The notes beneath the pieces are model-generated. The model was not told the DNA's origin. It made no database searches and saw only the letters and a program-made list of their open reading frames with translations. The position numbers were made by a program, and so were the translations under genes. From the NCBI GenBank assembly GCA_964507055.1, contig CAZDOJ010000001.1:913313-977312 (forward strand): a stretch of DNA of 64,000 nt, given 5' to 3'. This stretch comes from an uncultured Gammaproteobacteria bacterium (GTDB lineage Bacteria > Patescibacteriota > Microgenomatia > Levybacterales > UBA12049). Below, in pieces: positions 24,622-50,428 of the stretch (positions within the stretch are counted from its first letter, which is position 1; each line of letters begins with the position of its first letter).

Positions 24622-26022
24622 TTATTGTGAGCAAGTGAAGTTAGCGTCTTTTTGAAGTTTTACCATGCCACCCCATTCAACTGCTGTGAATCCTGATCTT
24701 GTTGGTATTGATCCAATTGATGGAGCATCAACAACTTTACGATCTTTTAATGGTTCAAAGTATACTCTTACTCTGATTGTTGTATCTGGTTTTGGAGAAA
24801 TTGTAAGTTTCTCAATTTGGTCTACCACTGATACTGGCATCACACCTACAAAGTAATATGGTGAGTATGGTAGATACTTATTCCAGTATTCTTTAAAGTC
24901 TGCAGTTTCCTTTGCATTCAAACCGAGCTTCGGAAGGATTTCTGAGTACAGAGAATCTAGTTCTGTATACGATGCTACATATCCCTTTGTTGGCTTATCA
25001 AATGAATTATCTGGAATTTCAGCTTCATAGTATAAGTATGGGAATGTTGTACCTTCAGAATAAATCGTTCCATCAGGATCAGCGGTAACATTCCAACCAC
25101 CTTGTGGGTACTGTGGAATGGTATTCTTCAACGGTCCTGTTGCATCAACACGTACAGCAGTTTGTTGTGTTTGCGTTGGATAGAGATAGATCGCAGGCTT
25201 GCAATCAGGCGTGAACCAACTGTAGACGGGAGTATCGACGAGATAGAACCACTTCAATTGAAGATTTTCTTTTGCTTCGCTTGAGAATTGAACGGGTTGC
25301 TGTGTTGGAATATATTCATATGCGTCATTACCATCAATGAGATATACCGTGCCAAGATGGTAGTAAAGAGTATACGCTTGATTTCGAGATTGAACAAAAA
25401 GAGTCCCTCCATTTTGCACACCTTGTCGTGCTTGCAAAGCATTTAATGTACCTTTAATATCTGCATAAATATACGCTGGTTCATTCAATGCTGTTCCAGG
25501 ACTTGTTACATCTGTTGTGTTAAACGCAGCCGGAGGGAATTGACTTGTTCTCCAATAATCAACTGTCTGTCGTTCTCCACCTTTGCTTGTACAATTCTTA
25601 ACAAAGTCTGGAATCGCTATGCCATCTTTGATATAGACATTGAATAAGACCATGTTCTTATTCTTCTTTCCTGAATCAACATACACAAAATCATCTCCAA
25701 TTGGTTGACCATAGTAATTCTTTCCATTAGCTTTATACATATCTTTTCCATTTGCATTTCCACCTGAGGCAACACCAATTTTTGCCATATCACCTTTTAC
25801 TTTATCTTCAGTGATACCAGCATTAATCTTGAGGAGGTTAAACTTAACACCGTTATAGGTAACCTGATCTGCAGTGTTTGGTGGATCGTAATCAACACAA
25901 GCTACAGCATCAACAGCGGTTGTATTGACAGGGTCGTAGTTTGGTTTCATTGCGGTTGTTGCTGAAAGTGCAACAGCAGCTACTGCAACAACTCCAACAA
26001 CGATGATTCCACTATCTTTCAT
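24622..26022 (-). CDS. secreted hypothetical protein
   Basis: 466 aa. Signal peptide IVVGVVAVAAVALSATTA. No family recognised. Confidence 0.5.
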   Translation of the reverse strand: MKDSGIIVVGVVAVAAVALSATTAMKPNYDPVNTTAVDAVACVDYDPPNTADQVTYNGVKFNLLKINAGITEDKVKGDMAKIGVASGGNANGKDMYKANGKNYYGQPIGDDFVYVDSGKKNKNMVLFNVYIKDGIAIPDFVKNCTSKGGERQTVDYWRTSQFPPAAFNTTDVTSPGTALNEPAYIYADIKGTLNALQARQGVQNGGTLFVQSRNQAYTLYYHLGTVYLIDGNDAYEYIPTQQPVQFSSEAKENLQLKWFYLVDTPVYSWFTPDCKPAIYLYPTQTQQTAVRVDATGPLKNTIPQYPQGGWNVTADPDGTIYSEGTTFPYLYYEAEIPDNSFDKPTKGYVASYTELDSLYSEILPKLGLNAKETADFKEYWNKYLPYSPYYFVGVMPVSVVDQIEKLTISPKPDTTIRVRVYFEPLKDRKVVDAPSIGSIPTRSGFTAVEWGGMVKLQKDANFTCSQ

Positions 26023-26092: not shown

Positions 26093-27805
26093 CTATACTT
26101 CTATGACGACAGGTAAGACTAATGGACGTATTTTAAGCTTCTTATATAAGTGTCTTTCAGCAATTTCCCCAATTGACCGACGAACATGAAACCAATTAGT
26201 GACTTCACCTTTTTTTGCAGAAAATACCTTTTCAATCTCAGCGGTAAGCGATTGTGATAATTCCTTGGTATTTGTAATAGATGATCCACGAGCGATAACT
26301 TCAGGCTTTTCTGCTAATTGTCCATCAGAGGATTTCACTTCTGCCATAATAATCATAAATCCTTCCTTGGCAAGCTTTTCTCTATCGCGGATAACAAAAC
26401 TATCAACCTCTTCACCAGAAACTTCATCAACATATACATGCTTTATTGGAACTTTTTTACCGTAGCGAACACTCTGCTTTGAAAAGATAACTTCTCTTCC
26501 ATTTTCGACCAAAAAGATATCATTCCTTTTGTAACCCATTTTTTGTGCTGTTGTACGATAGTTCACCATATGTCGATAAGTACCACTAATTGGTAAAAGG
26601 TAACGAGGTTGTGTTAATGAGATAAGGAGCATATGATCTCCTGCTGATCCATGCCCTGAAACATGAAATGTCCCACCTAGAGGAGAATTATGCAATACTT
26701 TTGATCCTGTCTTGGAAATTGAATCTGTAAGAGCGTTTACTGAAAGTTCATTTCCAGGAATTGTGTCTGAAGAAAAAAGCACACTATCGAGTGGATCTAA
26801 TGCAACATCCTTGTGTTCTCCCTCTGCAATTCTTGTCATTGCAGAATTCTCTTGCCCCTGACTTCCTGCGACTATCATACAAATTTGTTTGCTTTTAAAT
26901 TTGGAAACTTCTGAAAGCGGAACTTCAGTTCCTGGACGCATATGAAGATAGCCCAAACGCTCACCTATTTGCTTTACTTTCAGCATCGAACGACCAACAA
27001 AACAAACTTTTCGTCCAACTTTTTCAGCAGCTTGTATTGCCTGATTCATTCGAGAGATGTTAGAAGAATACGTTGTAATAATAAACTTTCCTGGACATTC
27101 TCTCATCTCACGCTCAAAATTGGCACCTAAATGAGTTTCAGAAGGAGTAAAACCATCTTTTTCTGAACCAAGACAATCAGACATTAAACAAATAAATCCT
27201 TCTTGTGCTGCTTCTGTTATTTTGAGAAATTCAGTTCTTTTACCATCAGCAGGTGTAAAATCAAATTTGAAATCGCTTCCATGAAAAAGATTTCCTGCCG
27301 GTGATTTAATAATGATATTTGCACTGTCAGGAACAGAGTGTGTTACTCGAACAAATGAAACAGTGAAATCTCCCAATCGAACTTCTGAGTCAGTAAACTG
27401 TACTGTATTCACAATAGGTTTCATTTTATAATCGAGGAGTTTTTCATTTGCTAATGCTGCTGTTAAAGGAGATGCGTATACAGGAAATTCTGGAAGTTGT
27501 GGCAATATAAATGGAATTCCTCCGATATGATCTTCGTGTCCATGTGTGAGAACCAATCCAACAATTTTTTTCTTTCCTGACTTTAATGCTTCAAGCAATG
27601 GGGCAATATCTGGTAGTAACAGATTAACACCGAGCATTCCTTCATCGGGAAAACCTATACCACAATCAACAATAAGAATTTGATCTTTATATTCATAAAG
27701 ATACATATTACGAGTGACATCTTCTTCTCCTCCCAATGCCATAAATGAGATTGTTGGAAGATTTGGTGAAGTTTTTTGAGAGTTTATATTTTTCTGATTT
27801 TCCAT
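26093..27805 (-). CDS. rnj: ribonuclease J (metallo-beta-lactamase / beta-CASP)
   Basis: LTHGHEDHIGGIPF (HxHxDH) plus beta-CASP and C-terminal domains. Confidence 0.88.
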   Translation of the reverse strand: MENQKNINSQKTSPNLPTISFMALGGEEDVTRNMYLYEYKDQILIVDCGIGFPDEGMLGVNLLLPDIAPLLEALKSGKKKIVGLVLTHGHEDHIGGIPFILPQLPEFPVYASPLTAALANEKLLDYKMKPIVNTVQFTDSEVRLGDFTVSFVRVTHSVPDSANIIIKSPAGNLFHGSDFKFDFTPADGKRTEFLKITEAAQEGFICLMSDCLGSEKDGFTPSETHLGANFEREMRECPGKFIITTYSSNISRMNQAIQAAEKVGRKVCFVGRSMLKVKQIGERLGYLHMRPGTEVPLSEVSKFKSKQICMIVAGSQGQENSAMTRIAEGEHKDVALDPLDSVLFSSDTIPGNELSVNALTDSISKTGSKVLHNSPLGGTFHVSGHGSAGDHMLLISLTQPRYLLPISGTYRHMVNYRTTAQKMGYKRNDIFLVENGREVIFSKQSVRYGKKVPIKHVYVDEVSGEEVDSFVIRDREKLAKEGFMIIMAEVKSSDGQLAEKPEVIARGSSITNTKELSQSLTAEIEKVFSAKKGEVTNWFHVRRSIGEIAERHLYKKLKIRPLVLPVVIEV

Positions 27806-27857
27806 AATTCGAACTGGTATAGTATACCTTGAGGGATATATTTAAACAAGCTTAGGT

Positions 27858-29207
27858 CTACACTTCTGATGTGAAGAGTTTATGATTATCTGCAGTAATT
27901 TTAATATTCTTTGCTTCTCCTGCTACAATCATTCGTGCGGCTTTTCGACACATCATATTTACAAGTCGTTCAAGTCCACGAATTCCAGGGTCATAACCAA
28001 GAGGGCGGATAATAATTTCCCAAACCGGTTCATCAATTACTAATTGCTCTGGTTTAAGTCCAATTAATTTACTAACTTTAGGAAAGACATAATCTCGTCC
28101 GATATGCATTTTTTCCTCATCATTGTATGAAGGCATTTGGATAATTTCCAAACGGTCGATAACAGCAGTTGAAATAGCAGTCGTATTGTTTGCGGTAGCT
28201 ACGAATAGTGAATTTGAAAGATTGAATGGATAATCCACATAATGATCAGAGAATGCATTGTTCTGTCCAGGATCCAAAAGTTCGATAAGAACACCCATGA
28301 TGTCAGCACGAGCGGCTTCAGTTACACGATCTAATTCATCAAGCAATAGAACTGGATTCTTTGTTTGGGCATGGACAAGTCTTTTAATAATTTGTCCAGG
28401 TTCTGCATCAGGAAAGAAACGTGACTGTCCACGAAGAACACGAGAGTCAGCCATACCTCCAAATGGAATACGTTCAAACTGTCTTCCAAGTGCTTCAGCA
28501 ATAGACATCGCAAATGTTGTTTTTCCTGTACCAGCCAATCCAACGAAACATAGAACAGGCGATTGTGTTGCGAAATCAGGTCCATTATTTTGAATATTAA
28601 GCATGATTGAGGCGATATACTCGAGCATACGGCTTTTTAACATCTCCAAACCGAAATGGTCTCGATCCAGGACTTCTTTTGCTTTCTTTAAGTTTAGGAT
28701 GTCTTCACTTTTACTTATCCAAGGCAAACCAGTAACCCAATTGATATATCGTTGTGTTGATTCATATTCCATAATATACGTAGAGCTCATAAATCCTGCT
28801 CCTGAACGGATTAATGCAAGACGTGCTATACGATCTTCAAGAAGTTTGCGTAAATCATCAGGAACCGGAGCTTTTTCGACTTTTTCACCTAATGCTCTGA
28901 TCTGGTCATATGATTCGCCTTTACTGTTGGTCGTTGTGGGTTGTGTAATTGTTCCTCCGCCACCTGATGCAGCATTCGCAGTTTGTATAACATTGGCGGT
29001 TTGAGCAGCACTTGCGGCTTGCACTTGTACAGCTTCCACTGCTTCTTGTTGTTGAGCTACTTGGCTACTTGGTAATGCAGCAATCGGCTGATCACCGTTA
29101 TTTGCAGAATTGTCACCATTAACTCCCCCTCCAGTTGTTGGAGCTTGAGATTGTGGTGATTGTGGTGCAGCCGGAGCTGAACCTGGTGGTTGGGCAGTTG
29201 GGTCCAT
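27858..29207 (-). CDS. Lon-type AAA+ ATPase module without the S16 protease domain; the LAN N-domain is replaced by an A/Q/P/G-rich low-complexity segment
   Basis: Aligns by eye to the Lon ATPase core: LCFVGLAGTGKTT (Walker A), LLLDELDRV (Walker B), NAFSDHYVDYPFNLSNSLFVATANN, RGLERLVNMMCRKAARMIV. The ORF ends right after the alpha-helical subdomain. Only 52 nt separate it from rnj. Confidence 0.7.
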   Translation of the reverse strand: MDPTAQPPGSAPAAPQSPQSQAPTTGGGVNGDNSANNGDQPIAALPSSQVAQQQEAVEAVQVQAASAAQTANVIQTANAASGGGGTITQPTTTNSKGESYDQIRALGEKVEKAPVPDDLRKLLEDRIARLALIRSGAGFMSSTYIMEYESTQRYINWVTGLPWISKSEDILNLKKAKEVLDRDHFGLEMLKSRMLEYIASIMLNIQNNGPDFATQSPVLCFVGLAGTGKTTFAMSIAEALGRQFERIPFGGMADSRVLRGQSRFFPDAEPGQIIKRLVHAQTKNPVLLLDELDRVTEAARADIMGVLIELLDPGQNNAFSDHYVDYPFNLSNSLFVATANNTTAISTAVIDRLEIIQMPSYNDEEKMHIGRDYVFPKVSKLIGLKPEQLVIDEPVWEIIIRPLGYDPGIRGLERLVNMMCRKAARMIVAGEAKNIKITADNHKLFTSEV

Positions 29208-29311: not shown

Positions 29312-31669
29312 TTATCTACTAAATCGTTTCTTTGGACCAAATTTGCCTCTTGGTGCTCTTTTTTCTTCACTTTCTCTTTGTAACTGTCTCGCTAATGGAT
29401 GATCTGATCGTGGTGCACGATCTGCACTTGGTCTGTCATTTCGGTCATTTCTTCGGAACGGAGGACGACTACCACTTTGTGGACGATCAAAAGATCTTCC
29501 TCCACGATCTCCACCACCTTGTGGGCGATCAAAGTTTGGTTGTTTTTCTTCGCCTTCTCCACCTTCATCGGCTGGACCATCGTCATCAAGAAGCATAGTG
29601 AGGTTAATTCTTCCTTGTTGATCTTTCTCTTCAACTCTCACTTTTACGATATCACCAATTGCTACAACTTCTGCTGGATCTTTTACGAATCCTCGCTTCA
29701 TTTTACTGACATGGACCATTCCATCTCTACCTGGAAGATATTCAACGAAAGCTCCAAAAGGAAGGATTCTCTTTACTTCACCTTCAAACTCTTCACCTGG
29801 GACAACTTCTCGAGTCATTCCACTGATCCAATCAACTGCTTTTTGTACTGCTTCTGCAGAAACACCTGTGATACTTACTTTACCATCATCATCGATATCT
29901 ACATCAGCACCTGTTGTAGCGATAATATTTTTGATATTCTTTCCACTCGGTCCGATAACTTCACCAATCTTTTCAACAGGTACATGAATTTGTTCGATCT
30001 TTGGTGCATATTCAGAAACTGCAGCTCGTGGTTCAGATATAGCATTAACAATTACTTCAAGAATCTTCATACGAGCTGTTCGAGCTCGAGCTAAGATTTC
30101 TGAAACTTGCTGATCAGTAAGCCCTGGAATCTTAACATCCAATTGGATTGCGGTAATACCTTTTTCTGTACCTGCAACTTTGAAATCCATGTCTCCAGAA
30201 AAATCTTCAAGCCCGATGATATCAGTCAAAAGAGTATATTTGTCACCTTCTGACATCATACCAATTGAAATACCAGCGACAGGTGCAGTGATTGGTACAC
30301 CAGCATCCATCAATGCAAGTGTTGAACCACAAGTTGATCCCATTGAACTTGATCCGTTCTGAGAAAGAACTTCAGAAACGACACGAATTGTGTATGGGAA
30401 ATCTTCTTTTGCTGGGAGTACTGCTCGCAAAGCTTTTTCAGCCAATGCTCCATGCCCAATCTCTCGTCGGCCAGGAGTTCCAACGCGACCTGTTTGGCCA
30501 AATGAATATGGAAGACCTGAATAGTGGTGCATATAATGTCGTGATTCTTCGCCTTCTGCAGTTTCAATAAGCTGTTCCATTCGTGGAGATCCAAGAGTTG
30601 CGATACTGAGAACTTGTGTCAAACCTCTTTGGAATAATCCTGAACCGTGAACTCGTGGAATAAGACCGACTTCTCCAGTAATTTCACGCAGTTCATCAAC
30701 CTTTCGGCCATCTGCTCGCTTTTGCTTGTTAACGACGTCGGATCGGATCATCTTGAACATAACTTTTTCAAGTGCTGTTGCGAGTGTTTTCTTATCGATA
30801 TCTTCTGTAGGATTCTTTTCTTTGAACTCATCATATACTTTATTAACAAGAAGACCTGTTTCATTTCCGCCACCTTCTTTACCAACTCGGGTTTCAATGA
30901 TCTTTTGGATATCTTCTTTGTATGTTTTTTCAAAAAGTTCAATTGCTTCTGTAAGTTGAGCATCTTGCTCTGGAACTGGAAGTTTTTCTTGGCCTACTTT
31001 TTTAACAAGTTCTTCAATTGCTGCGATAACCTTTCGTGTTTCTTCGTGAGCTTTAACGATACCCTCGTGAACAATTTCTTCACTTACCTGCATTGCACCG
31101 GTTTCGACCATGTTAGTCAAATCTTTTGTTTGTGACACAACAAGATCAAGATCAGAAGTCAATTGTTCAGGACGTGTTGGATTACTGATAAATCCGCCTT
31201 CTTCTGTATATCCCATACGAATACCAGCGATTGGACCATTCCAAGGAATTCGTGAGATAGCGAGTGCAGCAGAAACTGTGTTAAATGCAACCATATCAGC
31301 ATCATTATCTTCATCTATAGAGAGAATTGTGATGATAACTTGGACATCATGTTTGAATGCTTTAGGGAAAAGTGGACGGATTGATCGGTCAATGAGACGT
31401 CCTGTGAGAATACCATCATCAGATGGACGACCTTCTCTTTTAACCCATCGACTACCTTTAATGCGGCCACCAGCGTATAATCTTTCTTGTACTTCAACTG
31501 ATAATGGGAAGTAATCAAGTGAGCTTTCGCCACCTTCAACAACAGTTACAAGAACGACCGTATCACCGACACGTCCGAGAACCGCTGCTGTTGCTTGTGG
31601 AGCAAGTACACCTGTTTCAAATGTTAAAGTCTTTCCTGCAAATTCAGCAGAGACTGAGGTTTTATTCAT
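29312..31669 (-). CDS. pnp: polynucleotide phosphorylase with KH/S1 domains and an R/G/D-rich C-terminal tail
   Basis: PNPase blocks throughout. The tail is ...FDRPQGGGDRGGRSFDRPQSGSRPPFRRNDRNDRP... Confidence 0.93.
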   Translation of the reverse strand: MNKTSVSAEFAGKTLTFETGVLAPQATAAVLGRVGDTVVLVTVVEGGESSLDYFPLSVEVQERLYAGGRIKGSRWVKREGRPSDDGILTGRLIDRSIRPLFPKAFKHDVQVIITILSIDEDNDADMVAFNTVSAALAISRIPWNGPIAGIRMGYTEEGGFISNPTRPEQLTSDLDLVVSQTKDLTNMVETGAMQVSEEIVHEGIVKAHEETRKVIAAIEELVKKVGQEKLPVPEQDAQLTEAIELFEKTYKEDIQKIIETRVGKEGGGNETGLLVNKVYDEFKEKNPTEDIDKKTLATALEKVMFKMIRSDVVNKQKRADGRKVDELREITGEVGLIPRVHGSGLFQRGLTQVLSIATLGSPRMEQLIETAEGEESRHYMHHYSGLPYSFGQTGRVGTPGRREIGHGALAEKALRAVLPAKEDFPYTIRVVSEVLSQNGSSSMGSTCGSTLALMDAGVPITAPVAGISIGMMSEGDKYTLLTDIIGLEDFSGDMDFKVAGTEKGITAIQLDVKIPGLTDQQVSEILARARTARMKILEVIVNAISEPRAAVSEYAPKIEQIHVPVEKIGEVIGPSGKNIKNIIATTGADVDIDDDGKVSITGVSAEAVQKAVDWISGMTREVVPGEEFEGEVKRILPFGAFVEYLPGRDGMVHVSKMKRGFVKDPAEVVAIGDIVKVRVEEKDQQGRINLTMLLDDDGPADEGGEGEEKQPNFDRPQGGGDRGGRSFDRPQSGSRPPFRRNDRNDRPSADRAPRSDHPLARQLQRESEEKRAPRGKFGPKKRFSR

Positions 31670-32099: not shown

Positions 32100-32984
32100 A
32101 TGTCTTTTTTGGAAAGATTCTCTCAACAAAGAAAACCCATCGAAGCCTCTACCAGTCCACAAGGAATACGTATTGAAAAACATTTTTTGCCTGAGCCATT
32201 AGCTCCACGAGCATCACTTCATAACTTATCCCAGATTTCAGAAGTAGCATCTATTCGTCAAACCGGTACTGAAGTTCTCTACCCAGATAGCGGTGTAAGT
32301 TACACATTTTCACCACCAGATCAAAGCGATAAATATACAAATAATTTGGATCGTTGTATTACAGTAATACTTGCAGGAAAAACTCCAAAAACCCAAGATG
32401 AAATGTCGGCATTGCTCCATATTAGCCCTTTCTTTCTTGTAGATGAACGAGCTCAAGATTCTTTATCGGTTTTACTAGAACAATTTAAAGAAATTACCGC
32501 AAAGGGAGCTCCTAAGGCTATTATTGCTGGTGGATTAGTTATCCGAGGTGGATATACCAACCTAAGCTATAAAGAAGAGTATCAAACACTTATAAGTAAC
32601 GTACAAGCTAACTTAAAAGAGACCTTAGATACTACAGCAGTTGTTGTTAATCCCAAGAGAAAAAATCCACATAATCTTACACATATCTATTATGAAACCT
32701 CCACACAAACCGCTCACATTATCGAATCAGGAGCAGCATCTCGGAGAGAAAAGCGACCACAAATACCGCCAACTGTATTAGGAGATGGAGAGAGAAGTCC
32801 CCTTCGATTAGGACAACAGCGGAGACAGCATACAGTATATGTATGGGATGATCTTGTGATGAATTCACCTAGTGTTTCAGTTGAAGAACCACCGAGAATT
32901 GTAGAAGATATTCCTTTAGAGGAAAATAATAAACAAATTATCTGGGATGAATTTGAAGGACCTGAAAAAGGAAAGACACTCTAA
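32100..32984 (+). CDS. hypothetical protein
   Basis: 294-aa ORF with no recognised motifs. It is the only plus-strand gene inside a long minus-strand block. Confidence 0.45.
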   Translation: MSFLERFSQQRKPIEASTSPQGIRIEKHFLPEPLAPRASLHNLSQISEVASIRQTGTEVLYPDSGVSYTFSPPDQSDKYTNNLDRCITVILAGKTPKTQDEMSALLHISPFFLVDERAQDSLSVLLEQFKEITAKGAPKAIIAGGLVIRGGYTNLSYKEEYQTLISNVQANLKETLDTTAVVVNPKRKNPHNLTHIYYETSTQTAHIIESGAASRREKRPQIPPTVLGDGERSPLRLGQQRRQHTVYVWDDLVMNSPSVSVEEPPRIVEDIPLEENNKQIIWDEFEGPEKGKTL

Positions 32985-32996
32985 ATTTTACTCTAA

Positions 32997-34004
32997 TTAG
33001 ACGTCTGAAGAGCCTTTATAGACTTTTGGTGTCAGCCAATCGAGTGGCGGAGCATCATCTTGTTGATCTGCTGTTTGTGCTGGTTGAGCTGCAGGAGCTG
33101 GTGCAGGTTGTGGTGCTGCTGCTGGAGCAGGTGCTTGTGGTCTAGGCGTAGGTGCTGGCTGTGGTCGTGGTGCCGGAGCTGGTACAGGTTGTGTTACTCT
33201 TGGCTGTTGCTGAGGACGAGGTGCTGGTTGTGGAACTGAATCCTGATCAGCGAATTGTCTTGGTGCTGGCTGTCCACTTACTCTTCGTGCTCCTCGTTTC
33301 ATTAAAAATGCTGAAACTTCAAATGCTAATGAACTTGTTCGTGGATCTTGGAAGTTCTTTGTCGCGGTCATAATACCACTCAACAAATTCTGTGCAGCAT
33401 CTTGTTCTACTTGGAAACCAAGTGTTAATACAATATCTGCAACATGTTCACTTACAGATGAAGCTTGAGGATCGATTAAAACGATATCTCCGTAACCTTG
33501 ATTATTTGCTTTGTTATCAATATTAATGATACTGATATTCGAGAACTTCTGTTCATCAAATACATCACCAAGATCTGAAAGACTTGCTGCACCTACAGTA
33601 ATCAACAAATCAATTGTGCCACTTCCACGTGTGTATTTAACATCTTGCTCATCAAATGAAAGTCCTTGTTCTGAAGCCTTTACAATAATGTTCAGTAAAT
33701 TATTTTCAAGCGTGTATGAGACTTTTTCGATTTCTCCTTCTTGGTATGGGAATGAAACGATCAAATCGCCAGCATCCCCACCAAAAGCATGTTGTACTTT
33801 ATTAATACCTACTAAAGATGAAATTTCAACTATAGGATCTGTTGGACTTGCGATACTAACTTTTTTGTTCGCATTTTTAAGAAGTAAATAAAGTGCAAGA
33901 GCTGCACCCATTTCATCAATTGAAGGTTCACGACCAACTGCAATTCCAATGCTATTTGCTTTGCCGATCGAGTCTTTAAGTTTTTGAATTATAGTTTTAT
34001 CCAT
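32997..34004 (-). CDS. DHH/DHHA1-family (NrnA-like) protein with degenerate catalytic motifs and a Pro-rich C-terminal tail
   Basis: IGIAVGREPSIDEMGAALALYLLLK and IINIDNKANNQGYGDIVLID align to the NrnA motifs, but the Asp pair and DHH are replaced (DHH becomes DNK). Tail PAPRPQQQPRVTQPVPAPAPRPQPAPTPRPQAPAPAAAPQPAPAPAAQ. Confidence 0.5.
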   Translation of the reverse strand: MDKTIIQKLKDSIGKANSIGIAVGREPSIDEMGAALALYLLLKNANKKVSIASPTDPIVEISSLVGINKVQHAFGGDAGDLIVSFPYQEGEIEKVSYTLENNLLNIIVKASEQGLSFDEQDVKYTRGSGTIDLLITVGAASLSDLGDVFDEQKFSNISIINIDNKANNQGYGDIVLIDPQASSVSEHVADIVLTLGFQVEQDAAQNLLSGIMTATKNFQDPRTSSLAFEVSAFLMKRGARRVSGQPAPRQFADQDSVPQPAPRPQQQPRVTQPVPAPAPRPQPAPTPRPQAPAPAAAPQPAPAPAAQPAQTADQQDDAPPLDWLTPKVYKGSSDV

Positions 34005-43229: not shown

Positions 43230-45638
43230 TTAGGAGATATCTGCGTGAAGTGCACCAGTTCCGTCGATTGTAAAGTTTACTTTCTTGCCTCGATCGATTT
43301 CTTTGGTCAATCGTTTCTGAGCAATCATATCTTCAACAGTATCCTGTAAATATCGACGTAACGGTCGAGCACCAAAATCTTTATCAAATCCTTCTTGCGT
43401 AATCTTTTCGATGACTGCATCATCAAAAGAAAGTGTAATATCTTGTTTTGCTAATGATTCTATCAGCTGATCGAGTAGCAGCTTTGTCACTGCGATCACT
43501 TGTTCCGGACCAAGTGGTTTAAATGTTACAACATCGTCAAAACGATTAAGTAATTCTGGTTTGAAAATGCCTTTTGTTTGTAGTTGTTCCAAAAGACGTT
43601 GCTCAAATTTCTTATCTATTGGTGTACCCTTTTCAACTTCTTCACGGATGAACTCAGATCCTGCATTTGATGTTGCGATGATAATAGCATTACGGAATGA
43701 AACAGTCGCTCCTTTATTATCTGTTAATCTTCCATCATCAAGCACTTGAAGGAAGAGATTGTGAATAGCAGGATTTGCTTTCTCAAATTCATCAAGAAGG
43801 ATAAGCGAGGCTGGATTATCATGGATTTTATCAGTCAATTGTCCACGATCTTCTCCTTCACCAGGAGCAGCTCCAAGAAGTCGTTTCAATCCATTTTCAT
43901 CTGTATATTCACTCATATCCAAACGAATCATTCGTTGTTCACCACCATAATAGAACTGTGCCAGTGCTTTCGCTGTTTCTGTTTTACCAACACCAGTTGG
44001 TCCCAAGAAAAGGAATGAGATTGGCCGTTCGCTTGTCGTCATCCCAGAGCGAATACGACGCATTGCTTCACTTATTGCAACAACTGCCGTATCTTGTGCG
44101 ATAACTCGTTCATGCAATTTATCTTCCAAATGCAATAATAAATTAATCTCCTGGCCTGTAGGAAGTGCTATGGCGACATGACTTGTTGCTTCTACTTTCT
44201 TTACAACATCTTGCTCACTGACCATTTTGCGATGCGTCTTTTCAAAGGCAGGTCGTTCTTTTTCCTGAGAGACAGCATTGGCTACAGTTTCGAGCAATGA
44301 TACGGCACTTCCCGGAAGTACTTGATCTTGGAAGAACCGTTCTGCTAGCTCAACGGCACTTACAAGTGCTCGATAACTTATAATTACTCTATATTTATCT
44401 TCAATTTTTGCAGCCTCGCCTAACGCCATTTGAATAGCATCCGCAGGCTCAACAGGTTTTAATTCAACAACGGTAAAGGCTTCTTTCAGAGGATTTTTTT
44501 CCATATATTTCTTGTACGTACCAGTTGTCATCGTCGCAACCATGGGAACATTACCGCTTTTTAGATATGGGAGAAGAGCTCCTGAAAGATCCAAACCATA
44601 AGAAGTCGCTCCAAGAATATTTTGGAAATCAGGAATATACATGAAGACATCATTGGCATGAGATATTTCAGCAATAATGTTTTGCAGTCGTGCTTCAAGA
44701 TCATTTCTATTTCCAGCACCCGCAGTCAAAGCACCTACTAATAATTGAAAGATTCGCTTGTGATTCAAATAACCACCCAAATTGCCACTAAAGCTGTGAT
44801 ATGCCAATGCTCTTACTAAATTCTCTTTTCCTGCACCGATATCTCCCACGATCAAAACATTATTATTTTCAATTTTGGTGAGACCTTCAAGCATTGTTTT
44901 AAATTCTGCTTCTCTGCCACCAATATGCGGTTCTGTCTGCAATGCATAATTTGTAAACAGAGCTGTATATTTCTTTGTCTCTGGTGTCCATCCGGAATTG
45001 AGTGCTTCACCGATACCACTTCCAGTAAATTTGATTCGTACAGGTTTGGGATTCTCTTCATCTGGCATATCAAGTCGAACCCAATACAGAATATTGTACA
45101 GATCAGTTATTTTAAGTTGCTTTGCAAAAAGAATCTTTGTGTCTTTTTCAATTAAGAATAAATATGCTACAAGCACATCAAGAGTTGTTACATATTTCGC
45201 TTTAAAAGTTTGTGCTGTTTGAAATGCACTTTGGGCAAGAAGTTTTTTATCAACATCATTTACCACTAATTCTTTACTTGTGATGTTGGCTTTTTGAAGG
45301 ACTAATTTTACTTGAGGGTAAGTGATTAAGCGTTTAATAAGCGTTGACGTATTTGGTTCTGTAATAAATCCATATAAAGCAGCGAGTGTAAACGATTCAT
45401 ACATATTTTCTTCTTTATTCTTTGACACTTCTATTGTTGGAACAGCACGACTCACTTTATAGTGAAAAAATACTTCAAACATTACAAACAAATTAAAAAG
45501 AAATACGCTAACCTTTGGAGGGATATCATATGCGATCTGATAAAGAATAAGCGAAAAAAGCATTGCAAAAATGACAAGCCTAATACTTCGTACAAGTGCG
45601 GTTCGATAAAAACGATATAGTCGGACAGATAATTCCAT
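43230..45638 (-). CDS. membrane-anchored Hsp100/Clp-family AAA+ ATPase with degenerate D1 and intact D2
   Basis: Two N-terminal TM helices (LVIFAMLFSLILYQIAY; VFLFNLFVMFEVFF). A Clp-N-like repeat. D1 Walker A degenerate (IVGDIGAGKEN) with no DE Walker B. D2 canonical ([34 protein letters not shown]). No ClpP-docking IGF loop. No M-domain. Confidence 0.7.
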   Translation of the reverse strand: MELSVRLYRFYRTALVRSIRLVIFAMLFSLILYQIAYDIPPKVSVFLFNLFVMFEVFFHYKVSRAVPTIEVSKNKEENMYESFTLAALYGFITEPNTSTLIKRLITYPQVKLVLQKANITSKELVVNDVDKKLLAQSAFQTAQTFKAKYVTTLDVLVAYLFLIEKDTKILFAKQLKITDLYNILYWVRLDMPDEENPKPVRIKFTGSGIGEALNSGWTPETKKYTALFTNYALQTEPHIGGREAEFKTMLEGLTKIENNNVLIVGDIGAGKENLVRALAYHSFSGNLGGYLNHKRIFQLLVGALTAGAGNRNDLEARLQNIIAEISHANDVFMYIPDFQNILGATSYGLDLSGALLPYLKSGNVPMVATMTTGTYKKYMEKNPLKEAFTVVELKPVEPADAIQMALGEAAKIEDKYRVIISYRALVSAVELAERFFQDQVLPGSAVSLLETVANAVSQEKERPAFEKTHRKMVSEQDVVKKVEATSHVAIALPTGQEINLLLHLEDKLHERVIAQDTAVVAISEAMRRIRSGMTTSERPISFLFLGPTGVGKTETAKALAQFYYGGEQRMIRLDMSEYTDENGLKRLLGAAPGEGEDRGQLTDKIHDNPASLILLDEFEKANPAIHNLFLQVLDDGRLTDNKGATVSFRNAIIIATSNAGSEFIREEVEKGTPIDKKFEQRLLEQLQTKGIFKPELLNRFDDVVTFKPLGPEQVIAVTKLLLDQLIESLAKQDITLSFDDAVIEKITQEGFDKDFGARPLRRYLQDTVEDMIAQKRLTKEIDRGKKVNFTIDGTGALHADIS

Positions 45639-46132: not shown

Positions 46133-49100
46133 CTATTCAATCTCTTCTTGTCGAGTCTGTGGAGCTACATAATTAACAGGTCTAAAACTGTTAGGAATTC
46201 CAGAGTAATTGTAAGCCGTTTGAGGAGACATTGCCGCACCATTTGAAGCGACTCCATTTGCAGGAGGTGGTGTGCTATCTACTGCACCATTCGGCAAACT
46301 TGTTGGTGCTGGCGTTTGGAATACAGGGCTCGTATTCTCTGCCTGAGCAGGAGCCGCAGGTGATGCCGGAGCAACTGGCACTGCTGCTGGATCATTCACA
46401 ACTGCACCAGCAGGGGCCGGAGCAACTGGTTCTGAACCTACAGGAGTATTCACTGGAGCATCAGCTGGAGTTGTTGAGTCTGTTGGTTGTTGAGATTGAT
46501 CTTGTGTCGAACCTTGTGCATCCTGCGGTGCATTAGGATCTGTTCCTTCGACAGGTTTATCTGTTGGAGGTTGATCTCCACCATCGGTAGGTTGTCCTTC
46601 TTGTGCTGCAGGTGCATCATCGACTGCGATATTCTTCACACCAGCTGTCTCGAGAACGAGAATAGCAATCTCATCCTTTTGTCCTGCAGCTGCCACCATA
46701 TCTTCAACCATCTTTTCTAGTTCCTCATATTTAACGGTATCCTTAACAGCCAATACTGCTGCTGCTAATTGATTGCCTTTTTGACTTGCTTCATTCAATT
46801 TCGCTTGAACTGATGTGTACTTCTCTTTATCAGATGGTGTCTCTGCTGTAACAGGATTATTGATAAGCAAGAGGTGCTTCTTAAAGTTACGCAGTGGTTC
46901 ATGTGCTAATTCTTCTTCGATAACTTTGAGAATCTCAGTAGCCAATGGATCGCCTGAGTCTTTTGCAGCTTGTAGTTCTTTCTGAATAGCTGCGATGTCA
47001 TCATCAGAAGTTATATCTGTAATTGCCAAGATCTTACTTGCAAGCTCATTATTCTCTTTCTTTGCCTTCTGCATCTTTTCATATACAAGATTAAACTGGT
47101 CTTTCACTTCAGGATCAGCGAGATAAAGTGGATTAATAAGCTGCTTTAGAACATTCTTGAATTTCGTGACAGGCTCTTCGTTGTGTGCTTCTTCCGCTTC
47201 TTCTACAAGCTCACTATTTACTGCTGCAAGGATATCTTCAGCCAAGCTATCTTCATTTTCTTTAGCAGCCTTCAAATCTGTCATCAAATCCTCAATTGCA
47301 GAATCGGAAGTTGTATCATTAACCGCGAGAATCTTAGTAGCCAAAGCATTTCCTCGTTGGCTCTCCATATTGAGTTTCTCATGGAGTTCCATGAACCGGA
47401 TCTTCTTATTATTATCTTTGATATCGTCAGGGTGAATGATTTCAAGAAGGATCTTTTTTAGCTTCAAAGACGCTTGGATCTGTTGTGCCATACTATTGGC
47501 AAGCTCAATAATTTCAAATGCTAAATTGTCACCCTTTGCCTTTGCTTCTTCAATCTGTTTACGCAATGTTTGAATCTGTTTCAAATCAGTAGAGACAGTC
47601 ACTTCTAAAATACTGCTTGCCATTGCATTCTTATCTGTTCGAGCTTGGATTAACTTGTCATGAAGGACAATAAATCGTGACTTATCAACTGTACTTGTAA
47701 TGTTGTCTGGATTTGCCAAGTTGATCAAAACAGTTCTGAACTGTTCATCAGATAATGGCATAACTGTTGCACCAGCTCCACCTTTGTTAAAGACGAACTC
47801 ATTTGTATTATCACTGTAATCAATAACAATCGTGTCCCCAGCAACAAATTTCTTTGAAATGATCGCTAATGCGATAGGATTCTCAATCGCTGTTTGGACA
47901 AGTCTTCGGAGAGGTCGAGCACCATAGACAGGATCATATCCATCTTTCGCAAGCTGATTGATAGCCTTTTCTGTGATCTGCAGATTGTAGCCTTGCTCTT
48001 TCAAAAGCTTTGCAGTCTTTGCGATCGCCAAACGTGCGATTCCAGCCATATGTTCTGGTTGCAATGGCTTAAAGATAACAACTTCATCAAAACGATTAAG
48101 GACTTCCGGACGGAAGAATTTAATAAGTTCTTCGCGAACTTTAACCTGCATATCCTTAAAGATTTTTTCAAACTCTTCTGGAGTTCTCTTTGCTTTTGAA
48201 TCCACGTTGCTCAAAAATTGCTGGATAATGCCACTTCCGATATTGGAAGTACAAATAACGATAGTATTCTTAAATGAAATTGTATTACCTTTGTTATCAG
48301 TCAAACGTCCATCTTCAAGCAGTTGGAGCAAGATATTAAATACATCAGGATGAGCTTTTTCGATTTCATCAAGAAGTACGATAGAATAAGGTTTCTTTCG
48401 AACAGCTTCAGTTAATTGGCCACCTTCTTCATATCCAACGTATCCTGGAGGTGCACCAATAAGTTTTGCAACTTCATGCTTCTCCATGTATTCAGACATA
48501 TCCATACGAGCCATTGCATCATCACGTCCGAAAAGAAGTTCTGCAAGTGTCTTTGCAAGTTCGGTTTTACCTACACCGGTAGGACCAAGGAATACGAAAG
48601 ATGCGATAGGGCGATTTGCTGCAGCTAAACCGATTCTTCCACGTCGTACAGCTTCCGAAACAGCACCAACAGCTTCTTCTTGATCAACCATTCTATGATG
48701 GATTCGGTCCTCAAGCTTAAGAAGCTTTTCACTTTCATCTTCAGTAAGCTTCGTAATTGGAATACCAGTCCAAGCACTGACGACTTTTTCAATATCAGCC
48801 TTTTTGATTGATGTATCTCCTCCACCACGATTACCACCGTCTATTTGGAGCTTAACTTCAGAAGCAGCTTCATCGAGAAGGTCGATCGCCTTATCTGGAA
48901 GGTATCTTTCACCAATATATTTTTTAGAAAGTTTGACACACTCTTTCAAAGCATCATCTGGGATTTGAATTCTGTGGAATTTCTCGTACTTTGGTCGAAT
49001 AACCTTAAGCATCTCGAACGCATTCTCTTCACTTGGTTCATCTGCAGTGACAGGCTGGAATCGTCGTTCAAAGGCCTTATCTTTCTCAAAATTCTTTCGA

Positions 49101-50428
49101 TATTCAATAGTTGTTGTTGCACCAATAAGCTGGAAATGACCACGTGCCAAATGAGGCTTGATGATGTTTGCTGCATTCATACCTTCACCCTCGCCAGTTC
49201 CCATCAAAGCATGAATTTCATCAATAAAGAGAATGATTCGATTATTTGAACCAAGTACCTCGTTAATAACACCTCGCATACGTTCTTCAAATTCTCCTCT
49301 GTGACTTGCACCAGCAACTAACGACGCCACATCAAGTTGGAAAATCCTTTTTTCCTGAAGATCTTTTGGAACTGCACCCTGTACAATTTTTTGTGCAAGC
49401 CCTTCGACTAATGCTGTTTTACCAACACCAGGTTCACCGATAATAATCGGATTATTTTTTGTTCTTCGAAGCAAAACATGGACCATACGATCAACTTCTT
49501 TATCACGCCCAGCAACGGGGTCAAGGCGTCCCGCTCGAGCTTCTTCAGTAAGATCAATACCATATTTTTCAAGAACTGTCTTCTTCCCAAAATTGCTATT
49601 AGGGTTTTTTGAAAGCTTCTCGACCATTTGCTCTTTCTTTAAGTTGTGCTTTTCCAAAAGTTTACCAGTGGTATATTTAGGATCAAAGAGTACTATTAAT
49701 ATATCTTCAGGTGCTATAAAGTTTGCTCCATGCATTTTTGCATCTCGATATGCTTGATCGAATACTTCTTGAGCGGTTTTACTCAGCGTTGGTTGGCCTT
49801 TATAAACCCCCATTTTTTCAGATGCTTGAATTTCTTTAGAAATTTGTCCACCATCAGCATTCATTTCCCCAAGCATTGCATACAACTGTTGGTCATAAAG
49901 AAGTCCAATAAGAACTTGATCAGGTTCAATGAACTGTTGCTTTATACGCTTTGTCTCTTCTTGAGCGTGTGTCAAAGCTTGTGTTGCACGAGGGTCAAGG
50001 TGACTGAGAGCTGAAAGATCCGATTGACCTGCTGCGGGATGTGCTGTTGCACCATCAGATCCTGCAGGTGCTTGTCCCGGTTGACCTGGCTGAGCAGCCT
50101 GACCTGGTTGTGCGTTTGGATCTGGTTGTCCTTGTTGTGGGTTTTGACCATCTTGAGATGCTCCTTGTTGTACTGGCTGACCGGAAGCATCGGTTTGAAC
50201 AGGAGCATTTGGATCAGCAGGACCTGATGAAACTGGGGTTTCGTTTGTCGGAGACTGTACTGCATTCGGATCAGATGGAGCCCCAGTTGGGACAGGAGCA
50301 GCAGTGCTTGCATTTGGGTCAGCAGGAGATTGAGCCTGTGTATTTTGAGGCTGATTTTGAGCACCATTTGGTTGAGGAGTTATACCATCTGGTTGATCTT
50401 TTTTCTGGTTAAAAATGTTTCCGAACAT
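46133..50428 (-). CDS. giant Hsp100/Clp-family double-AAA+ ATPase (1431 aa) with low-complexity termini and four C-terminal repeats of about 95 aa
   Basis: Clp_N repeats. D1 [17 protein letters not shown] / [11 protein letters not shown]2 [19 protein letters not shown] / [15 protein letters not shown] / GARPLRR. Only about 20 aa separate the D1 small subdomain from D2, so there is no ClpB or ClpC M-domain. No IGF/IGL ClpP loop. PQG-rich residues 1-140 and 1270-1431. Confidence 0.75.
46619..47776 (-). repeat. intragenic tandem protein repeats (4 x about 95 aa) in the Hsp100 giant; same family as in the adjacent membrane protein tail
   Basis: Units begin L[AI]NP or IIHP and contain GN.LA..IL.V.D.TS...I..L...L.AAK..GD.LA.EIL (residues about 898-1270). 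Confidence 0.7.

Follow-up and report, generated by a model that had tools for sequence, protein, structure and literature searches.

Can the ATPase motor of a Lon protease exist as a gene on its own? The question is raised by a gene at 27858-29207 (minus strand) of a 64,000-nt stretch of contig CAZDOJ010000001.1, here referred to as the window, to which all coordinates below refer (minus strand unless stated). Its unbroken open reading frame (ORF) starts with ATG and encodes a protein of 449 aa (~48.8 kDa), which the ORF, the Pfam domains and the matches to LonA identify as a protease-less LonA-type AAA+ ATPase. Here we refer to it as LonAAA. In the Lon classification, the rule is a single chain in which the protease domain comes after the ATPase, with the subfamilies A, B, C and BA (PMC9569914).

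Domain composition of LonAAA

Annotation of the protein with Pfam revealed an AAA domain (residues 219-357) and a Lon_lid domain (residues 383-433); Lon_C and LAN (PF02190) were both absent. Residues 99-445 matched the ATPase part of LonA (residues 249-577 of E. coli Lon). This agrees with the original prediction, made from the sequence of the window, that a Lon ATPase core is retained with neither an S16 protease domain nor a LAN domain; the motifs quoted there are also present, namely Walker A (GLAGTGKTT, residues 223-231), Walker B (VLLLDE, residues 286-291) and RGLERLV...CRKAA. When E. coli Lon was compared with the window by tblastn, only its residues 249-574 found a match, and separate searches of the 64 kb with its P domain (residues 585-784), its N domain (residues 1-200 or 1-300) and ClpP returned nothing.

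The TIGR00763 model ('lon', endopeptidase La) aligned residues 99-435 of LonAAA with its positions 251-572 of 795, and the score was about half of the curated cut-off (305.7 versus 608.05 bits), short of the equivalog level. The NF008053 model likewise gave 232.3 bits against a cut-off of 891. In a sequence search of the PDB, the best match was B. subtilis LonA (3m6a) with an E value of 4.6e-72 over query residues 101-444, followed by the proteins of Y. pestis and E. coli and by human LONP1. All top matches were LonA, and no chain with a molecule name other than Lon scored better than E 1e-4. The same affinity was found for the predicted fold. In the AlphaFold2 single-chain model, built from a 53-sequence alignment with a mean predicted local distance difference test score (pLDDT) of 72, residues 95-449 were folded, and the top 50 matches of this model in the PDB by Foldseek were LonA without exception.

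Three parts can be told apart within the matched region. Residues 99-165 (28713-28913) align to residues 249-310 of E. coli Lon, as judged from the alignments to the B. subtilis, Y. pestis and E. coli proteins, and are the counterpart of the final helical sub-domain in the N-region of LonA, with an 8-aa insertion; in LonA this sub-domain bears the name NTD-3H (PMC9569914). Its three predicted helices (residues 95-112, 117-137 and 142-160) had pLDDT values above 80. The large alpha/beta subdomain of the AAA+ module follows (residues 166-360; 28128-28712), which holds the Pfam AAA domain, matches the fold of LonA structures and, by alignment, carries a second insertion of ~6 aa ahead of Walker A. 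The alpha or lid subdomain (residues 361-445; 27873-28127) holds the Pfam Lon_lid domain.

A Lon-type AAA+ module, with large subdomain and Lon lid, is thus present after the last helical N-sub-domain, and no C-terminal S16 domain with a Ser-Lys dyad was found, the alignment stopping near E. coli residue 577. Because the protease and LAN domains are both missing and the TIGR00763 cut-off was not reached, the protein is, as judged from its sequence, a LonA-derived ATPase and not a Lon protease.

Distribution and conservation of the protease-less form

A search of 5.8 billion proteins returned, among its best 120 matches, only proteins with AAA and Lon_lid and without Lon_C; most were of 420-480 aa, with identities down to 58%, and some longer N-terminal tails and some fragments were seen among them. 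The identical protein occurs on 7 independently assembled contigs, the longest of 1,318,932 bp, and the contig look-up gave 8 carrying contigs. In GTDB, scanned with one genome per species, 275 loci were found, and the best 80 of these, which were read closely, were protease-less with the same stop position. A metagenome scan seeded with distant clade members added 62 protease-less loci and 18 canonical Lon loci, and the shared stop was seen in over 140 independent loci in all. Of the best 80 records, those with a name belong to Levybacteria/Levyibacteriota, Gottesmanbacteria, Microgenomates and the 'Patescibacteria group', and one short relative is from Dojkabacteria.

When representatives at 50% identity were searched exhaustively, the immediate family formed two clusters, after which came other short proteins (350-550 aa, 40-54% identity) with the same end point. 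Full-length LonA proteins showed 37-42% identity to LonAAA (~230-255 bits) against 44-54% for the distant short relatives. In a neighbour-joining distance tree of the AAA+ core, calculated without support values, every short form fell in one clade, separate from full-length LonA. The original prediction had named two findings that would speak against it, an S16 domain fused in other assemblies and a closer kinship to non-proteolytic LonB- or LonC-like paralogues. No S16 domain fused to a clade member was found among the relatives examined, and the protein is closest to LonA. The only relatives with Lon_C were canonical LonA and unusual tandem-AAA proteins, with two or three modules, of unrelated organisms.

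These tandem-AAA proteins (P0122-P0127, P0141 and P0157, none of them in the window) are ~950-1700 aa long, carry 2-3 Lon-type AAA+ modules, end in one Lon_C (S16) domain and lack LAN. Their sources are mixed, with one protein from Dependentiae and one from Brassica napus, and they look like an unusual multi-AAA architecture of Lon. The closest full-length Lons were also considered as a pointer to a Lon of the candidate phyla radiation (CPR); the named ones came from Anaerolineales, Binataceae, Clostridiales, Deinococcus and an insect, and were uninformative.

The title 'uncultured Gammaproteobacteria bacterium' is borne by about half of the GTDB records with the gene, and other names, Sulfotelmatobacter or Methylomirabilota for example, by a few. 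These titles from outside CPR are probably placeholders or wrong taxonomic labels.

That the protein ends just where the S16 domain should begin could, taken alone, also mean a truncated lon gene, produced by a frameshift, by mis-assembly or by recent pseudogenisation, and a decaying gene was one of the three roles considered in the original prediction. Against this, the frame is intact and the next gene, encoding RNase J, lies 52 nt past the stop codon (intergenic 27806-27857), both as predicted, so that there is no space for a remnant. Remnants of S16, LAN and ClpP were sought in any frame of the window and none was found. The identical protein in independent assemblies and the same stop in ~140 loci argue in the same direction. 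The ratio of nonsynonymous to synonymous substitution rates (dN/dS) to the closest orthologue, which is 94% identical, was 0.024 (core) and 0.051 (tail); to more distant orthologues it was 0.04-0.07 and 0.12-0.18, respectively, for pairs in which dS is high and partly saturated. The core is under strong purifying selection (dN/dS 0.02-0.07). As the catalytic residues of the ATPase are also kept, at ~100% in the sequences compared below, we reject decay and assembly artefact, and their probability is practically nil.

The gene is a member of a widespread, strongly conserved family, found in the ultra-small CPR/Patescibacteria, that derives from LonA. Going by the alignments, this family has kept the ATPase motor, that is the last helices of the N-region, the AAA+ large subdomain and the lid, and has lost the S16 and LAN domains. 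Pfam, NCBIfam and PADLOC hold no model specific for the clade, and no description of a protease-less Lon clade was found in the literature searched. The clade is real, conserved and apparently undescribed. Its members are annotated as 'AAA family ATPase' at NCBI and, misleadingly, as 'ATP-dependent Lon protease' at JGI.

ATPase residues, pore loops and the proposed activity

We compared 276 distinct short sequences with 13 full-length canonical LonA proteins, residue by residue. The Lys and Thr of Walker A (28515-28541) are invariant in the 276 sequences, as are D290 and E291 of Walker B (28335-28352; D/E in 276/276). Sensor-1 (N340/N341; 28185-28190) is N in 274, the arginine finger R352 (28152-28154), equivalent to E. 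coli R484, is R in 274, and the sensor-2 residue R410 (27978-27980) is R in 272. All ATPase catalytic residues are hence kept in 272-276 of the 276 sequences.

The pore is different. Pore loop 1, RGQSRFFPDAEPG (residues 259-271; 28395-28433), aligns to E. coli Lon without gaps, with F265 standing where E. coli Lon has its translocating Tyr (Y398), and has an acidic P-D-A-E-P-G where E. coli Lon has I-G-S-M-P-G. In the 13 canonical LonA the loop reads T-Y-[IV]-G-[AS]-M-P-G, whereas the protease-less clade has x-F-P-[DE]-A-E-P-G, with F in 70% of the 276 sequences, P in 86%, D/E in 96%, A in 93% and E in 99%, followed by P-G. In LonA the substrate is contacted by this Tyr in a spiral arrangement, and degradation depends on the residue (PMC8503904). 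On the alignment, this rebuilt pore loop 1 is the clearest signature that sets the clade apart from LonA. The acidic P-[DE]-A-E-P-G loop points to an altered client preference, perhaps for basic proteins.

What would such a motor do? We consider it fairly probable that LonAAA is a stand-alone, ring-forming, Lon-derived AAA+ remodeller or unfoldase that acts without degradation. Among the three roles offered in the original prediction (a stand-alone unfoldase or chaperone, a partner of a separate protease and a decaying gene), the first is the best supported, although we infer it. It is favoured because the arginine finger is conserved, the aromatic pore-loop residue is kept in the immediate family, and no protease was found in the window or near the gene in related loci. 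The arginine finger of an AAA+ ring acts on the subunit next to its own, and its conservation is therefore indirect evidence for a ring, most likely a hexamer, with ATP hydrolysis between subunits. Such a ring would hydrolyse ATP, and its acidic, mostly aromatic pore loop would grip clients and remodel or unfold them without degrading them, which would be a ClpB-like or chaperone-like use of the Lon motor.

Several points weigh against this remodeller. The aromatic-hydrophobic-Gly motif of pore loop 1 is broken (F-P-D) and the residue at the pore-loop-2 position is Ala in the alignment to LonA, so that hand-over-hand threading is not assured. In the wider clade the aromatic position of pore loop 1 is F/Y in only 204/276, the rest being H, L, S, R, N, Q and others. 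The LonA hexamer is held together in part by the protease ring and the N-domains, and a motor that has neither may need some other aid to assemble. Moreover, oligomerisation, ATPase activity and unfolding are all deduced from sequence.

The two changes in the pore would also suit a nucleotide switch or scaffold, in which ATP binding and hydrolysis would govern assembly or partner binding and no polypeptide would be threaded. Consistent with this, about one clade sequence in four has H, L, S, R, N or Q at the aromatic position, and the flanking P-[DE]-A-E-P-G is nearly invariant. However, F is found at the aromatic position in at least 90% of the immediate family, and the arginine finger, both sensors and the Walker B Glu are kept, as in a ring motor that cycles; we regard a pure switch as very unlikely.

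Terminal regions and the search for a peptidase partner

The N-terminal extension (residues 1-98; 28914-29207), delimited from composition, motifs and the AlphaFold2 model, consists to 82% of A/Q/P/G/T/S/N and has no aromatic residues. The original prediction of a low-complexity, A/Q/P/G/T-rich stretch in place of the substrate-binding N-domain was right about its composition, and its length is 98 aa rather than the ~120 aa given there. The replacement also goes less far than was claimed: LAN is gone, but the helical segment of residues 99-165 still aligns to E. coli Lon. Nor is the extension featureless. The motifs MDPxAQ (residues 1-6) and [NR]GDxP (residues 37-41) are conserved in the tails of the Levybacteria-type family, with M1, D2 and G38 invariant and D39 and P41 nearly so. 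A helix is predicted at residues 47-78, with pLDDT below 50 at residues 1-46 and 77-97, and residues 1-46 and 79-94 come out as disordered. N-terminal extensions of the relatives range from 0 to 321 aa (median 91) and are rich in A/P/Q/S/T. In the proposed remodeller, the disordered tail with its two motifs would replace the LAN domain as a tether for clients or partners.

At the other end, the linker that leads to the S16 domain in LonA begins directly after the conserved F445. In the alignment this residue is followed by only four residues, TSEV, and the stop codon (27858-27872). The tail after the conserved aromatic residue is of 4 aa in 215 of the 276 sequences, and only two exceed 9 aa. 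The commonest endings finish in W, V, I, F or Y (PEW, SEV, SEI, PQW and QEF).

A short conserved C-terminus with a hydrophobic or aromatic end could be a docking peptide, and with an intact motor and a pore-loop aromatic that is kept in the immediate family this would fit a split protease, in which the ATPase would dock on a peptidase from another gene (a free S16 domain, ClpP or some other) and pass unfolded substrates to it, as in ClpX-ClpP and HslU-HslV. The partner was not found nearby. Besides the window, tblastn detected no S16, ClpP or LAN within 8-10 kb of the gene in ~140 loci, while the same search detected LAN, S16 or both in the 18 canonical Lon loci, which served as a positive control. 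In the annotated contexts no peptidase gene recurs beside the gene, and neighbours of the M23, M16, M73 and S26 families are only sporadic. The C-terminal tails are also dissimilar in the wider clade (IGIVS, QGPLS, NYY, IDTV and VLV), and the Lon classification holds no split Lon, all its members being single-chain (PMC9569914). The peptidase search covered the window and flanks of 8-10 kb, and a peptidase acting in trans from elsewhere would be compatible with it, which counts against a purely stand-alone motor. All in all, a split protease seems to us quite doubtful.

Genomic neighbourhood

Upstream of LonAAA, after a gap of 104 nt, lies the gene for PNPase (29312-31669; 785 aa), which has a basic R/G-rich C-terminal tail, and downstream, after the 52-nt gap, the gene for RNase J (26093-27805; 570 aa). 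No terminator-like hairpin was found in either gap. In a scan for promoters and terminators, sites were no commoner than in shuffled sequence, and both gaps beside LonAAA were free of them. The window holds, in addition, rpoB/C and alaS, the array ftsK, rnj, LonAAA, pnp, rpsO, a DHH protein gene, infB and nusA, two genes for Clp/Hsp100-type ATPases, and dnaJ-dnaK-grpE-hrcA.

The order nusA-infB-DHH-rpsO-pnp-LonAAA-rnj-ftsK was found across the 80 genome loci as far as the contigs reach, with a member missing or displaced in a few. Neighbours were counted in 146 loci, of which 112 had at least 2.5 kb downstream and 104 had enough upstream sequence. The gene for RNase J follows LonAAA on the same strand in 101/112, within ~150 nt in 66 and overlapping or at most 60 nt away in 55, and PNPase lies upstream on the same strand in 91/104. 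LonAAA is probably co-transcribed with pnp and rnj.

An accessory role in RNA decay could follow from this placement, with the ATPase assembling, remodelling or regulating RNase J, PNPase or both and its tail serving as a scaffold. The conserved rpsO-pnp-LonAAA-rnj array, the tight spacing to rnj and the lack of terminator-like hairpins on both sides of the gene speak for it. The pairing with rnj also holds in seven loci where pnp is not upstream (L030, L079, L087, L089, L111, L130 and L142), and it persists in two distant lineages, P0133 and P0233, the RNase J of P0233 being only 36% identical. Moreover, basic clients would go well with an acidic pore loop, and the tail of the PNPase in the window is basic, with an isoelectric point (pI) of ~10. 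However, the whole eight-gene array is conserved, and adjacency may simply reflect slow rearrangement in this class. The pnp...rnj...ftsK order (there as pnp...rnjB...spoIIIE) occurs in Bacillus subtilis as well. Four distant members (P0147, P0156, P0146 and P0169) are placed elsewhere with no rnj nearby, and unrelated islands split the genes in several genomes. The evidence is genomic, and we consider such an accessory role rather unlikely.

Because the whole array is conserved and the same order is found in B. subtilis, a functional link of LonAAA to pnp and rnj is only suggested. The neighbourhood may be inherited synteny and not a functional link, a point that also weighs against the proposed remodeller. 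That LonAAA acts on the RNA-decay machinery, or on basic RNA-binding proteins, is no more than a lead. In its boldest form, which we hold to be quite unlikely, LonAAA would be a dedicated ATP-driven part of the machinery for RNA decay in Microgenomatia, expressed together with PNPase and RNase J, whose acidic pore and disordered tail would assemble, remodel or recycle the nucleases or basic RNA-binding proteins. If this were true, a protein derived from Lon would play a part like that of a degradosome scaffold or ATPase.

The C-terminus of PNPase (29312-29600) is a low-complexity tail of ~95 aa beyond the S1 domain, which is first acidic and then rich in R/G/D/P, with a pI of ~10. The islands between pnp and the Lon-type ATPase gene in relatives are at 6697-7951 of L004, 6284-7824 of L005 and 5672-7927 of L006. 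They are small and unrelated, and hold a NUDIX gene, a gene with a TIR domain (CAP12-PCTIR_TIR) and a cluster of Peptidase_M73 and signal-peptidase genes; the spot between pnp and LonAAA seems to tolerate insertions. A role of LonAAA in anti-phage defence was considered and rejected, as PADLOC gave only generic P-loop matches, the best being DolB (E 2.7e-7, 28 bits) over the AAA core.

Within the conserved array, a DHH-family protein of 335 aa with a weak Pfam match is encoded at 32997-34004, between infB and rpsO, and is found at the same position in nearly all related loci; many bacteria have rbfA/truB there. Two further ORFs of the array have no Pfam match, one at 24622-26022 (466 aa), which is confined to close relatives, and one at 32100-32984 on the plus strand (294 aa). 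Outside the array, a Clp/Hsp100-type protein of 1431 aa is encoded at 46133-50428, with a double-AAA core (AAA, AAA_lid_9, AAA_2 and ClpB_D2-small) recognisable only over residues ~300-870 and ~560 C-terminal residues without a Pfam match. Its gene adjoins that of an 802-aa ClpB-like protein (43230-45638), near dnaJ-dnaK-grpE-hrcA.

Comparison with other Lon proteins and AAA+ motors

LonAAA shares ~345 residues at 35-42% identity with LonA (MEROPS S16; E. coli Lon, B. subtilis LonA and human LONP1), including the last helical N-sub-domain, the AAA+ large subdomain, the Lon-specific lid, the catalytic residues and the fold. It differs from LonA in having no S16 Ser-Lys domain and a disordered tail instead of LAN, as well as in its rebuilt pore loop 1 and its insertions of 8 and ~6 aa.

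LonB, LonC and LonBA are also Lon variants without the LonA N-domain (PMC9569914, PMC3391209 and PMC13069640), but they keep the protease domain, which LonAAA does not. LonB carries a B-type protease domain, and its AAA+ module contains a membrane anchor, whereas the stretch from Walker A to Walker B of LonAAA aligns to E. coli LonA without gaps and holds no large insertion. LonBA has no N-region and an A-type protease domain (PMC9569914), the latter missing from LonAAA. LonC has lost ATPase activity and kept proteolysis, and is thus the mirror image of LonAAA, whose Walker motifs are intact and whose protease is gone.

Of the aromatic-hydrophobic-Gly motif of pore loop 1 in classical AAA+ polypeptide translocases, LonAAA has the aromatic residue (F265), followed by P-D and not by [IV]-G, and in the clade this position is F/Y in 204/276. 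Among other AAA+ families, ClpB/Hsp104 is a motor akin to protease-coupled motors that remodels its clients without proteolysis, and the likeness to LonAAA is a functional analogy; the best Clp-type matches of LonAAA have E values of only 1e-4 to 1e-3. The plant FtsHi proteins, relatives of FtsH that are called pseudo-proteases (PMC8197885), offer a second functional analogy from another family, but they are membrane-bound, and in LonAAA the protease domain is wholly deleted.

Protease-independent activity of a Lon motor has precedents. An active-site mutant of yeast Pim1/Lon is reportedly inactive in proteolysis and yet chaperone-like. LonC is described as a dual chaperone-protease (PMC13069640). 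Unlike LonAAA, both retain the protease ring, which contributes to assembly.

Implications

The loss of a domain is in itself easily understood, and the worth of the finding lies in how old and how strictly conserved the clade is, in its rebuilt pore loop and in the position of the gene between those for PNPase and RNase J. The original prediction did not include the large family, the altered pore loop, the motifs of the tail or the conservation of the pnp/rnj setting. That so large and ancient a clade, under strong selection, retains only the motor means that the Lon motor can exist on its own, against the definition of Lon as ATPase and protease in a single chain (PMC9569914), in a relation to Lon comparable to that of ClpB/Hsp104 to the Clp proteases. 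The clade is a natural experiment on the Lon pore loop and N-region without proteolysis. Owing to the JGI label, reconstructions of metabolism and proteostasis in CPR may count a Lon protease that does not exist. The position of the gene between PNPase and RNase J, finally, gives a testable lead on RNA decay in genome-reduced bacteria.

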